From: Candidatus Hodarchaeota archaeon
GTDB taxonomy: Archaea; Asgardarchaeota; Lokiarchaeia; Sigyniarchaeales; SOKP01
Direction: 5' to 3'
NCBI GenBank assembly: GCA_048886685.1
Contig: JBHLKM010000027.1
Span: forward strand, 1-34,523
Length of the DNA stretch: 34,523 nt
The translations under genes and the position numbers were made by a program. The notes beneath the pieces are model-generated. The model was not told the DNA's origin. It saw only the letters and a list, made by a program, of their open reading frames with translations, and searched no databases. This document shows positions 88 to 4,492 of this stretch, piece by piece. Position 1 is the first letter of the stretch; each line of letters starts with the position of its first letter.

Positions 88-534
88 TTGAAAGAGCTTT
101 ATGAGATAGGCTTTGTCTTTCGTGGATTTGTACTTGTTAATCATATATTCAAAAATCTTCCAGCGCAAAAAGAACATGGAGTTAATAAAGACCTAAGAGG
201 CGCATTTATATCCGCTATAAACGCTTTTACTGAAACTGCATTCCAAAAGAGTTCTTTAGAGTATCTAGAATCGGGAAATATCTTGTTTATTTTTAAAATT
301 GCAGAAGTTCAATCTGAGGATAATAATGTAAAAGAACCATTAATATTATATGGGTTAGTAGATAAATCAAAAAAGAAATCTGATAAGCTTGTTACTAAGT
401 TTTTTGGGAAAGTAAACCCGATTTTGCAGTTGTTTGTTCAAAACTTTAATGGAGCTAACTTCTCAGAATTAAATCAATTTGAACAGTTTGAAAAAAGTAT
501 GTTAGACTTTTTAATTAAAAAGCCACAGGATTAG
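88..534 (+). CDS. Longin-like (profilin-like fold) domain protein
   Basis: 148 aa. N-terminal beta hairpin (LYEIGFVFRGFVLVNHIF), then helix DLRGAFISAINAFTETAF resembling the longin alpha1 pattern (L..gflsA...F), strands (SLEYLESGNILFIFKI, LILYGLVD) and C-terminal helices. TTG start. Confidence 0.6.
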   Translation: MKELYEIGFVFRGFVLVNHIFKNLPAQKEHGVNKDLRGAFISAINAFTETAFQKSSLEYLESGNILFIFKIAEVQSEDNNVKEPLILYGLVDKSKKKSDKLVTKFFGKVNPILQLFVQNFNGANFSELNQFEQFEKSMLDFLIKKPQD

Positions 535-2187
535 TTAATCAGCAAGGCTCCAACCTTTTGGTGTTGCTCGAGAATATTTTATTTTACCTTGTTCCTTTAA
601 TAAATTGATTTTCTTTTCAATTTGATTAGTATCAAATCCCTTCTCTTTTATTGAGTTCACGAATTCTGCTTTTGTAGCCACAATTTCTTTTTGTCTAAGG
701 TATTCAATTATTAAATCACTCAATGAATCTCCTGCACTTACTTTTTCTTCGGGGATCTTTTCTTTCTTAGCACTAGAGAGAACAGTAGTTAATTTTTCTT
801 TATCTGTTCTAATAGGTTCTTCAATAACCATATGTTTTACAGCAACTTTGGGTTCTTCAATAGGCTCTATTTTTTCAACTTTTTCTTCTCTTTCTTCTTC
901 CGACAAACTCCATACAGGGTACATAACTTTTTCATATACTACAGATTTTTGTGTTTTAAGTACTGTCAATTCTTCCAATATTTCATCTTCAGTATATCCT
1001 AAATTTTTTAATTCAGAAGATAAATCTTTTAAATGCCCTTTTTTTAGTAAGATCTCGAAAATATGTTCTCTTATGTTTGTAGGAACCTCTTGGGCTTTCG
1101 CTATTTCCTTTATAATTTTATCTTTTTTAGGAGATTCTATCATTTCGATTTTAATTTGCTGAGGGATATCGAGAGGATCTTTATCCCCCCATTCAAAATC
1201 ACTTATGATTCTAATTGTACGATCATATCCTCCAAAAACTATGTTTTTCTTATGTTCTGGATCTAATCGATAACATATATCTTTAATTGAGGTTGACACT
1301 TTAGTTTTCCATTTCAATTCAAAATTAGGAGAACCGATAGAAGGATTATGGAATACTTTTAAGGATCCATCTGCACACCCCGCTACTATTTCATTCGCAT
1401 TATCACCATCAATATCTTCTATTAACAGTGATAAAGGACGACCTTCATCAATTTGGATTTCTTTAATTGATTCTCCATTAGCATTAAGGATTTTAATCGT
1501 AGAGTCATCAGTACTTAATAAAATTTCATTTAATCCATCATTAGTAGCATCCCCAACTTTAATGTCATTAACTTGAGTATTGAAGTCCTTTTGCCAAACG
1601 ATATCGGGAAGATCATCTTTAAATCTAATTAACTGGGTAATTCCGTTTTTTGTACCTACTAATAATCCATAAAATGGCATCTTTTCATCTGGTAATTTTA
1701 AAATCCCCAGTGTGCAAGCAGTCACCCAAGAATCGTAATATAAAATAAATTTCGGTTCTTTAGCTTTAATACTATCAAAAATCTTTAGAGTTTTGTCTTC
1801 ACTACCAAATATTAGTTCTATATTCCCATTTCGAGTAAAATCCCCAGCGATACAGCAATTTATTCTTTTTGGAGATCTATATTTCATTATGCCAACTAAT
1901 TTTTTCTTTTCTGGACTTAATTTCAATACCATGAAATTTCCATCACCAGCACCTACTAATACTTCATCACAACCATCTCCATCGAGATCAATTGGATAAC
2001 TACACCGACACCACCCATCAAAAACTCTATCATCAATGATATTCATACTTTCATCCATTAAATAGAGAGTTTTATCGTGTCCACCAAAAACTAAGAAACT
2101 ATTATCATGACATTTTAAAACGGAACATGTTAAAACCGCATCCGGACATTCAAACATATGAATAAGTTGATAACGCTTTCTAATCAT
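535..2187 (-). CDS. Beta-propeller protein (FG-GAP/VCBS-like, BBS2-like blades) with two C-terminal winged-helix-like domains
   Basis: Repeats DLDGDGCDEVLVGAGDG, GDFTRNGNIELIFGSEDKTLKIF, GDATNDGLNEILLSTDDSTIKIL, EDIDGDNANEIVAGCADGSLKVF, plus VFGGHDKT/VFGGYDRT, in aa ~1-330. Two ~60-aa helical units ending YPVWSL and TPKGWSL. No signal peptide. Confidence 0.7.
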   Translation of the reverse strand: MIRKRYQLIHMFECPDAVLTCSVLKCHDNSFLVFGGHDKTLYLMDESMNIIDDRVFDGWCRCSYPIDLDGDGCDEVLVGAGDGNFMVLKLSPEKKKLVGIMKYRSPKRINCCIAGDFTRNGNIELIFGSEDKTLKIFDSIKAKEPKFILYYDSWVTACTLGILKLPDEKMPFYGLLVGTKNGITQLIRFKDDLPDIVWQKDFNTQVNDIKVGDATNDGLNEILLSTDDSTIKILNANGESIKEIQIDEGRPLSLLIEDIDGDNANEIVAGCADGSLKVFHNPSIGSPNFELKWKTKVSTSIKDICYRLDPEHKKNIVFGGYDRTIRIISDFEWGDKDPLDIPQQIKIEMIESPKKDKIIKEIAKAQEVPTNIREHIFEILLKKGHLKDLSSELKNLGYTEDEILEELTVLKTQKSVVYEKVMYPVWSLSEEEREEKVEKIEPIEEPKVAVKHMVIEEPIRTDKEKLTTVLSSAKKEKIPEEKVSAGDSLSDLIIEYLRQKEIVATKAEFVNSIKEKGFDTNQIEKKINLLKEQGKIKYSRATPKGWSLAD

Positions 2188-2335
2188 GATCTTATAAGAT
2201 TCTTTTAGATTATAGAAATTCTTATAATATCTAAATTATATTTTTCTGTTTATTCACTTAATGATTACTTCTCGAAATATTAAATTATTATGGTAATATA
2301 GAAATAAAAAAAAATAAAAAAGAAGATTTATTATT

Positions 2336-4492
2336 TTATAATGCTAATTGAGCATCAGATGGGCTGTATTCGCCTGTACCAGTAATCTCATATGAGATTT
2401 CTAGGCTATCTCCAATTTCCAATTCGTCAATCTCCCATTTCAAAGTATCTTGGCCTACCTCATCTGTTATTTCTGGTTTCATTGAATAAGTTCCATATTC
2501 AAATGAATCGGGAACTTTATCAAGTAAAACAAGATTGTATAACTTAGATTCACCTATATTTTCAAGAGTTAAGATAATTCTATAATTACCAAGATCACCA
2601 ATTGGGACAACTTCTTTGCTTGTACGGAATTTCCTTCTTATATGAAGCGCTTCAATAACAGGAACTTCAGGTCTAAATTCTAATTCTTGACTTACAGGAA
2701 AGGTGTTTGCGTGATAGATGATTTCTGATTCAAATGTGGAATCTCGAGCAGGTTTTATACAGTGAATTGGATATTGAAATTCTAAAGTTGAATCTGGTTT
2801 AAACATACCTGTACTAGTATCTTTAAGATTTGCCAATGCAATAGTAAACACATCTGTTTCAAAGCTTACCGCATCAGCAGAAAGTTCCACCTCATCTCCA
2901 TCCCATATTAGCGTAATTTCATTTGCTTTAGGGGGTTGATATTCATCAGAGAAAGTTTGTTGAATGACGGTAATTTCATTTAATGGAGCAGAACCATTAT
3001 TTGCCATTTTAAGAGTAGCTACGACGTCTTGAGTCTTATAAGTTGGTGTTTCTACCTTATCATAAGCCATATCTCCGGTTATACTAGCTATTTCTAAAAT
3101 AACATCTGAGATTGTCATTACAACGTTCACATGATATTGATAGTCAGGAACAACTCTAAATTCAAGCTTCTTTCTAAATGTAGGATAATCTTCACTTTCA
3201 TATTGCCACTTAACTGAATGCCATTGAGCTCCTGCAGGTAACATTGGTACATCATTAGGATCAATATCAACAAATTTTGTACTCTCATCGTCAGGAGAAT
3301 ATACATCAGCATTGAAAAGTTGAATAACAAATTCAGAAGAATTATCAAAGATTAGTTTATTATCCCATATATTTGGTTCTTCATCTCTCTCAAGTGTATC
3401 GATATAAAATTTGTTACGAGTGTATGCGTCAAATTTATCGATAGCTAGACCCTCAGCAAATGAAGCCGCAGCTTTATAAGAAACATCGATCTCCCCAGTT
3501 TTTCTTCTAGCGATGTCATTTACCATAATGTTACATGTAAATTTAAGTAAAACAGTATACTCTGGTCTTAATCTATCAATTTTCCAAATAATTTTATCCC
3601 CTTCGATTTCCGCGCGTCCTTCCGTTGTATCTCGCACTACAGGGTTTGTGAATTCATCTGGTATTGTTTTGATAACTTCAATATCAGATACGGGTTTATC
3701 AAACATATTCCTTAACGCTATTGCGAATGTTATAGTGTTTTCTCTGTCTATAGAAATTCCAAATGTCTCTAGACTGGTTTCAGCAACCACAGTTCCACCG
3801 TCTTCCCATGTTTCTCCTTCTTCATCCTCTTCCTCATCATCCTCTTCCTCATCATCCTCTTCTGCGGTTGGTGGTATTGTTGCAGCAACTTTCTTACTAG
3901 GTTTACTTGATTTATCTTTAAGTTTTAATAGTTCTCTTTCAATATCATTGATATTTAAGACATCATCTGCTTCAGTAAGAGTACTGATAAATTCTTTAAC
4001 TAAAAAGAGATTTTGTACCTCCTTTTTCAGTTCGAACTCCTTTGTTTCAACGTTATCTGGATACTCGGTCCCTAATTCTCTTATTGATATAGTTTTCGAT
4101 TTCAAGTTCGTACTACCAATATTATCTAAGGCAACATCTATGTCCCAAAGGCGATCCGTTTTACTTGGATTTTCTATACTAATCTTTCCACCAAAACTAA
4201 AAGATTCAACATTAGCATCATGATCTTGTTTTACTTCGACATCCTCAATGATCTTTACTAATGCTAATAAACCTTCTCGATTTCCATTCTTCAATAAAAT
4301 ACTGCCTTCGAGTTCTCCCGTATCCTCATCATATGTCTCAATTATCGGTGTAGCAGAATCTCTATCGACCAGTTTTACTTTTCCCTCATCCATATCTGTT
4401 CTTTTCAATGCGTCTGCTACCAATTCTTCCCTTGCTTCAGCTTCATCCCATCCCATACCTGTTGTTTTCTTTTTCTTATCTTTTTTTCCCAT
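2336..4492 (-). CDS. Acidic multi-beta-sandwich protein (mu-homology-like region plus DUF11/Ig-like domains), no signal peptide
   Basis: 718 aa, very D/E rich. Repeated Ig-type motifs (ITFAIALRN..VSDIEVIKTIP..IIWKI; ATLKMANNGSAPLNEITV; ILTLENIGESKLYNLVLLDKVPDSF..LKWEIDEL..LEISYEI). Basic N-terminus with no hydrophobic leader or TM segment. Confidence 0.55.
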   Translation of the reverse strand: MGKKDKKKKTTGMGWDEAEAREELVADALKRTDMDEGKVKLVDRDSATPIIETYDEDTGELEGSILLKNGNREGLLALVKIIEDVEVKQDHDANVESFSFGGKISIENPSKTDRLWDIDVALDNIGSTNLKSKTISIRELGTEYPDNVETKEFELKKEVQNLFLVKEFISTLTEADDVLNINDIERELLKLKDKSSKPSKKVAATIPPTAEEDDEEEDDEEEDEEGETWEDGGTVVAETSLETFGISIDRENTITFAIALRNMFDKPVSDIEVIKTIPDEFTNPVVRDTTEGRAEIEGDKIIWKIDRLRPEYTVLLKFTCNIMVNDIARRKTGEIDVSYKAAASFAEGLAIDKFDAYTRNKFYIDTLERDEEPNIWDNKLIFDNSSEFVIQLFNADVYSPDDESTKFVDIDPNDVPMLPAGAQWHSVKWQYESEDYPTFRKKLEFRVVPDYQYHVNVVMTISDVILEIASITGDMAYDKVETPTYKTQDVVATLKMANNGSAPLNEITVIQQTFSDEYQPPKANEITLIWDGDEVELSADAVSFETDVFTIALANLKDTSTGMFKPDSTLEFQYPIHCIKPARDSTFESEIIYHANTFPVSQELEFRPEVPVIEALHIRRKFRTSKEVVPIGDLGNYRIILTLENIGESKLYNLVLLDKVPDSFEYGTYSMKPEITDEVGQDTLKWEIDELEIGDSLEISYEITGTGEYSPSDAQLAL
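3822..3862. repeat. 15-bp tandem repeat (TCATCCTCTTCCTCA x2.7) encoding the acidic EEDDE tract of the 718-aa protein
   Basis: Exact copies at 3822-3836 and 3837-3851, partial copy at 3852-3862. Confidence 0.9.

Follow-up and report, generated by a model that had tools for sequence, protein, structure and literature searches.

Clathrin adaptors, COPI and muniscins bind cargo and partners through modules called mu-homology domains (MHDs). The locus described here raises the question of whether a soluble archaeal protein containing DUF11-type β-sandwiches carries a real MHD, or whether its sandwiches are simply strung together. The stretch of DNA that was analyzed (34,523 nucleotides, referred to below as the window) has a G+C content of about 30% and comes from a 4.4-Mb genome in 47 contigs. 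An earlier note, made from the sequence alone, had pointed to MHD-like motifs between positions 3397 and 4270. The longest open reading frame over this region, together with its translation, identified a gene at 2336..4492 on the minus strand (the MHD-type gene), which encodes a soluble protein of 718 aa and in which the region corresponds to residues 75–365. The close protein relatives carry the source labels Promethearchaeota, Lokiarchaeota or Hermodarchaeota, which identifies the source as an Asgard archaeon of Lokiarchaeia type. The datasets in which DNA of the gene occurs are sediment metagenomes, and no RNA dataset is listed for it.

Sequence evidence for a mu-homology domain

The three motifs on which the earlier note was based were all recovered in the 718-aa translation, namely ALVKIIEDVEVKQ... 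at residues 77–106, VSDIEVIKTIP...KIIWKIDRL...LLKF at about residues 268–318, and EIDVSYKAAASFAEGLAIDKFD at residues 334–355. A Pfam search of the protein returned only DUF11 (PF01345), with 37.1 bits against a gathering cut-off of 24.6 bits, at residues 250–326 and in a second, C-terminal stretch. A match to Adap_comp_sub (PF00928, the C-terminal domain of mu subunits), which the note had proposed to look for, was obtained for orthologues but not for the protein itself: the 718-aa sequence gave no PF00928 match even at E-values up to 10, whereas the orthologues P0064 and P0086 (73–74% identity) scored 35.3 and 34.5 bits, above the gathering cut-off of 31.6. The scores of two further orthologues, P0046 and P0120, were 26.8 and 24.6 bits against the same cut-off. 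The orthologue matches covered profile positions 123–240 of 259 and lay at the same region as DUF11. When 66 diverse family members were searched, DUF11 was matched by 63 and PF00928 by 32 at E<0.01, with a best value of 1.9e-10, and zero PF00928 matches were found across 14 control prokaryote genomes. The muniscin muHD profile (PF10291) gave no Pfam match for the 718-aa protein and matched one of the 66 members (E 0.0048).

A search of the PDB with the single sequence of the protein found nothing. The best PDB sequence matches of a profile built from the 129-member family were AP-3 mu1 (E 0.0046), AP-1 mu1 and AP-2 mu. HMMER aligned the second and third motifs to strands of mu3, including the SGLKV-type crossover (SGLKVNRLD in mu3), in agreement with the MHD-like character ascribed to them, and the first motif sits at the start of the structural alignment described below. 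Judged from these searches, the likeness of the protein to MHDs is greater than chance would give. Two points count against an MHD. The DUF11 score of the 718-aa protein is higher than any PF00928 score, and the signal in these profile comparisons is limited to the inner lobe and the crossover strand, leaving the first 100 profile positions uncovered. The C-terminal part of the family profile (positions 570–639 and 362–482) gave two weak PDB matches on which nothing here is based, one at E 0.04 to the gamma-adaptin ear (1gyv) and one at E 0.025 to AbpX, an archaeal bundling protein; single family members match AP3B1_C and Alpha_adaptinC2 in Pfam.

Predicted fold and domain anatomy

The full-length AlphaFold2 model, computed with a 129-sequence alignment, had a mean pLDDT of 89.8 and a pTM of 0.77, with disorder only at residues 1–15 and 201–236. 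A Foldseek search with the whole model placed long Ig arrays in the first 46 rows, at TM values under 0.2 and an rmsd close to 40 Å, and found the AP2 mu2 domain at a TM of 0.68 and an rmsd of 3.2 Å. The matches to the long arrays are meaningless global fits, for which re-alignment and an isolated domain were needed. After re-alignment with VIA-align, MHDs alone filled all 50 rows, comprising AP2 mu2 (5wrk_A, 19.2), mu4 (17.7), mu1 and mu3 (17.2 each), delta-COP (16.5) and SGIP1 (15.1). For mu2, 225 of 245 residues were aligned at an rmsd of 3.4 Å, with model residues 73–463 set against chain residues 169–435. A separate model of residues 55–390 likewise gave MHDs at ranks 1–10 and throughout Foldseek's top 50. 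In the predicted models, an inner sandwich is inserted into an outer one over the whole domain, which is the two-subdomain MHD topology; an arrangement of only independent tandem Ig domains, named in the note as the result that would speak against it, was not seen.

The models place the MHD at about residues 72–463, with two predicted insertions at 176–244 and about 358–439. Residues 1–71 (4280..4492, minus strand) begin with the polybasic MGKKDKKKK and contain, in the model, a single helix and short strands; they are not a longin, since the segment is too small for one and has no Pfam match. The polybasic start is kept in orthologues as M[GA]KK.KKK (residues 1–9, window positions 4466–4492). 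Residues 72–175 (3968..4279, minus strand) hold the first motif and comprise the N-terminal strands of the outer lobe (subdomain A, about 72–158) and the first strand of the inner lobe (163–170). The structural alignments begin here, at model residues 72/73 against mu2 168/169, while matches to a single sandwich begin at about residue 161 (Foldseek, isolated-domain model). E83, G102 and N108 in this segment are at least 90% conserved in the family.

Residues 176–244 (3761..3967, minus strand) form an inserted helix followed by a Lys-rich and then acidic disordered loop that ends in ETWEDGG, with pLDDT below 50 at 201–236. The acidic loop described in the earlier note was thus found, at about residues 196–240, and is the sole long low-confidence stretch of the AlphaFold2 model. 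The insertion is confined to the closer orthologues, among which the helix and ETW-E-DGG are conserved. The latter, at the end of the loop, is an acidic Trp motif; acidic Trp motifs of this kind in partner proteins are ligands of the delta-COP and mu2 MHDs. Residues 245–342 (3467..3760, minus strand) make up the inner lobe (subdomain B), a DUF11-type sandwich that holds the second motif and is delimited by the Pfam DUF11 match, the PF00928 matches of orthologues and hhalign. Taken with its first strand, the inner lobe runs from about residue 161 to 342, and the insertion at 176–244 breaks it just behind that strand.

Residues 343–463 (3104..3466, minus strand), delimited by HMMER and alignment ranges, contain the crossover strand GLAIDKFDAY of the third motif (strand from 348), a conserved block at 368–392 and the last two outer-lobe strands (about 440–461). 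The block is the most conserved of the family (E368, P373, W376, N384 and S386) and lies inside an excursion of about 80 residues (about 358–439). With the model of residues 55–390 the alignment stops at mu2 residue 417, and with the full-length model it reaches mu2 435 at model residue 463; because only the full model extends beyond mu2 417, the last two outer-lobe strands seem to be supplied by about residues 440–461. These strand assignments were read from alignment ranges, without coordinates or a residue-level superposition.

The further Ig/DUF11-like domains expected after the MHD region proved to be two C-terminal sandwiches. Residues 466–618 (2639..3097, minus strand) form a pilin/CnaB/cohesin-like β-sandwich, and residues 620–718 (2339..2635, minus strand) a DUF11-type sandwich, identified by the second DUF11 stretch in Pfam, TIGR01451 at 627–671 and hhalign. 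Comparison of sub-alignments by hhalign related the inner lobe to the last domain with 98% probability (E 2.5e-13) and to the third domain with 93.6%, and the third domain to the last with 96%. Since the inner lobe and both C-terminal sandwiches are related in this way, the inner lobe appears to be one of three related DUF11-type repeats, which suggests how the MHD fold could have arisen.

The description of the protein as a stand-alone MHD without an N-terminal longin was borne out, as just 71 residues, with one helix, short strands and no Pfam match, precede the domain. No longin or adaptin-type fusion was found in nine longer relatives, and Clat_adaptor_s (PF01217) had no match above the cut-off in this genome (best 19.8 bits, with stops inside). 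No adaptin-like gene lies near the MHD-type gene; Adaptin_N-like HEAT proteins are encoded on other contigs, and the Adaptin_N model has matches in control genomes too. These profile searches lend no support to a full AP-like tetramer. The YxxPhi pocket of mu2 is formed by F174, D176, K203, W421 and R423, with Asp176 binding the cargo tyrosine. By range offset (model 72/73 = mu2 168/169), which is not a residue-level superposition, D176 falls on K80 and F174 on L78, and by the HMMER register the Phi-side positions V401 and L404 of mu2 fall on I351 and F354. From the model, the known cargo pocket is probably not kept and the Asp of the tyrosine pocket is probably replaced; YxxPhi-type binding is unlikely because mu2 Asp176 falls on Lys80 by the range offset. 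By analogy, partner binding of the delta-COP or muniscin type would be the better model.

Distribution of the family and the neighboring propeller gene

A sample of 120 genomes from across the phylum was searched with the family core (residues about 65–175 plus 245–718), and 88 of them contained it at E ≤1e-10, most often as a protein of about 600 aa. The named members belong to bins of Jord-, Hel-, Thor- and Lokiarchaeia type. The genome studied here has two further paralogues, at G000:C5:134236-135669 (plus strand) and G000:C17:35032-36462 (minus strand; loci L035 and L036), of 674 and 703 aa with 23–24% identity; the C17 copy matches PF00928 at 23.3 bits. At 7 of 15 distant loci from other Asgard lineages, a conserved neighbor of about 235 aa with a metallo-beta-lactamase fold (Lactamase_B_3) is encoded upstream of, and co-directionally with, the members of about 600 aa (L032:4968-5675, L033:8379-9068, L037:8968-9678, L038:7912-8715, L039:5802-6506, L040:8918-9613 and L044:8589-9344). 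A cluster of 396-aa DUF11 proteins, mostly from Thermoplasmatota, is a look-alike of residues 62–470 by language-model score (0.95). The MHD-type family may reach beyond the Asgard archaea.

Downstream of the MHD-type gene, on the same strand and after a gap of 148 nt, lies a gene (535..2187, minus strand) for a 550-aa BBS7/BBS2/ITFG2-type β-propeller protein, with Pfam matches to Beta-prop_BBS7 (1.3e-16), BBS2_Mid and Itfg2. To score co-occurrence, one set of 100 genomes from the order was searched both with the first 250 residues of the MHD-type protein and with the propeller. Both were found in 74 genomes and neither in 16; the propeller was found without the MHD-type gene in 7 and the MHD-type gene without the propeller in 3. 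Most of these ten discordant genomes have one of the two genes at the end of a contig. The absences cluster in a few clades (g2, g3, most of g45 and f28), pointing to few independent loss events. Family f1 has the two genes side by side and in the same direction; in family f2 (for example G123, G125 and G136) they are likewise neighbors but converge. That the genes stay adjacent even where their orientation differs speaks for a functional link, and the propeller protein is, as far as gene order and co-occurrence indicate, a likely functional partner of the MHD-type protein. A restriction of the linkage to family f1, considered on the basis of five distant loci plus G088 and G093, was rejected; these were paralogue loci or contig-end genes, and the search across the order found the two genes adjacent in f2 too.

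Just after the stop codon of the MHD-type gene, two oligo-T runs (T6 and T9) were read from the sequence at 2303..2325 on the minus strand, which represent a possible archaeal terminator between the two genes. Because these runs follow the stop codon, the MHD-type and propeller genes may be separate transcripts. On the opposite strand, the open reading frame list contains a convergent frame of 148 aa (88-534, plus strand), the stop of which abuts that of the propeller gene. Pfam gave no match to it at E below 0.02; its only lead, from a language-model search (0.88), is to an Asgard cluster with Fuz_longin_1 in 34% of its members, and a longin identity is no more than putative.

Proposed role and alternative readings

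Taking the evidence as a whole, we favor, at a probability of roughly 0.6, the reading that the protein is a cytoplasmic Asgard member of the Adap_comp_sub group, with a real MHD at about residues 72–463 followed by two DUF11/pilin-type sandwiches and without a fused longin, which would serve as a binding platform together with the propeller protein. By analogy with characterized MHDs, the domain would be a non-enzymatic platform to which a short motif or a partner protein binds, with a binding site probably near the conserved block at 368–392, in the loop that precedes the final pair of strands. The protein probably acts together with the adjoining BBS/ITFG2-type propeller protein. Its polybasic N-terminus could tether the MHD-type protein to anionic membranes, and the acidic ETWEDGG loop could be either a partner motif or an internal ligand mimic. 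A bolder version, which we regard as possible but doubtful, joins two proposals: that the MHD and the adjacent propeller together make up a bipartite adaptor- or coat-like unit of archaea, attaching to membranes or cargo, and that the family preserves the origin of the MHD by nesting one DUF11-type repeat inside another sandwich.

The repeats themselves can also be read otherwise. A DUF11-repeat protein may have gained the nested two-sandwich arrangement independently, in which case it would be unrelated to the eukaryotic MHDs and uninformative on adaptors; we consider such a separate origin unlikely. That the protein simply strings together independent Ig/DUF11 sandwiches without MHD topology is hardly credible, since the predicted models contradict it, even though Foldseek's leading rows for the whole model were long Ig arrays. 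Very improbable, too, is a cell-surface or secreted, adhesin-like protein that would leave the cell by an unrecognized export route, as most DUF11 and pilin-type sandwiches are found outside it. Its DUF11 and CnaB/pilin-like domains are indeed typical of surface proteins; against this stand the polybasic N-terminus, the long acidic loop and the absence of a signal peptide or transmembrane segment here and in 127 of 129 relatives. The lack of a signal peptide had been remarked on in the earlier note, and it held: no 19-residue window of the 718-aa protein reached a Kyte–Doolittle mean of 1.6, so neither a transmembrane nor a signal-like segment was detected by this measure, and the N-terminus is polybasic, not hydrophobic. 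No signal peptide is hidden upstream, because no earlier start codon lies between the preceding stop and the start of the open reading frame. Without a hydrophobic N-terminus or a transmembrane-like window, the protein showed neither the export signal nor the cell-wall anchor of DUF11/pilin-type surface proteins. A hydrophobic N-terminus occurs in 2 of the 129 family members, and the few family windows at or above 1.6 are internal, mostly on the long strand near residue 450.

Compared with known systems, the favored MHD protein differs from the mu subunits of AP-1 to AP-4 (for example AP2 mu2, PDB 5wrk, 1bw8 and 2xa7) in having no longin and no sign of a heterotetramer, and in carrying the insertions at 176–244 and about 358–439 and two extra C-terminal sandwiches. 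It has no sequence-level match to the delta-COP MHD or the muniscin muHD (SGIP1, Syp1/FCHo; PF10291), and its flanking domains are different. Its inner lobe and both C-terminal domains are of the same type as the DUF11 (PF01345) and CnaB/pilin-type repeats of prokaryotic surface proteins; unlike these, it is predicted to be cytoplasmic, and its first repeat is nested in another sandwich to give an MHD.

The MHD interpretation proposed in the earlier note is thus supported by the PF00928 matches of orthologues, the family profile and the predicted structure, and it was already known. Eme et al. 2023 (PMC10307638) report that Adap_comp_sub (PF00928), one of their candidate eukaryotic signature proteins, and Clat_adaptor_s are present, unfused, in most Asgard phyla, and 44 PF00928 occurrences stand in Supplementary Table 3. 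Strings of this protein and its orthologues (ETWEDGG, NPSKTDR, VIETYDE and FGISID) recur in Lokiarchaeales entries of this table, and a Jordarchaeia entry shows the conserved blocks of the family. Because strings specific to the protein and its orthologues occur there, the orthologous group and its MHD reading had already been published. The accessible part of that paper gives a Pfam-level match only and calls the distribution sparse, whereas here the fold was modelled, its limits and insertions were mapped and the family was detected in 88 of 120 genomes. Two later structure-based surveys mention adaptor homologues only in passing, and a literature search on Asgard mu-homology found no structural analysis of this family, although one may still exist. 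With the basic claim in print since 2023 at the level of a Pfam candidate, the value of the present work lies in confirmation and anatomy, not in discovery; what is added is confirmation at the level of the fold, the limits of the domain and its insertions, the kinship of the inner lobe with DUF11, the wide Asgard distribution and an independent check of the propeller linkage.

MHDs in the closest archaeal relatives of eukaryotes bear on the origin of vesicle coats. The gene described here provides an archaeal MHD that is modelled with confidence, is widely conserved and has a defined candidate partner, which makes biochemical tests possible, and it points to an origin of the MHD fold from DUF11 repeats.
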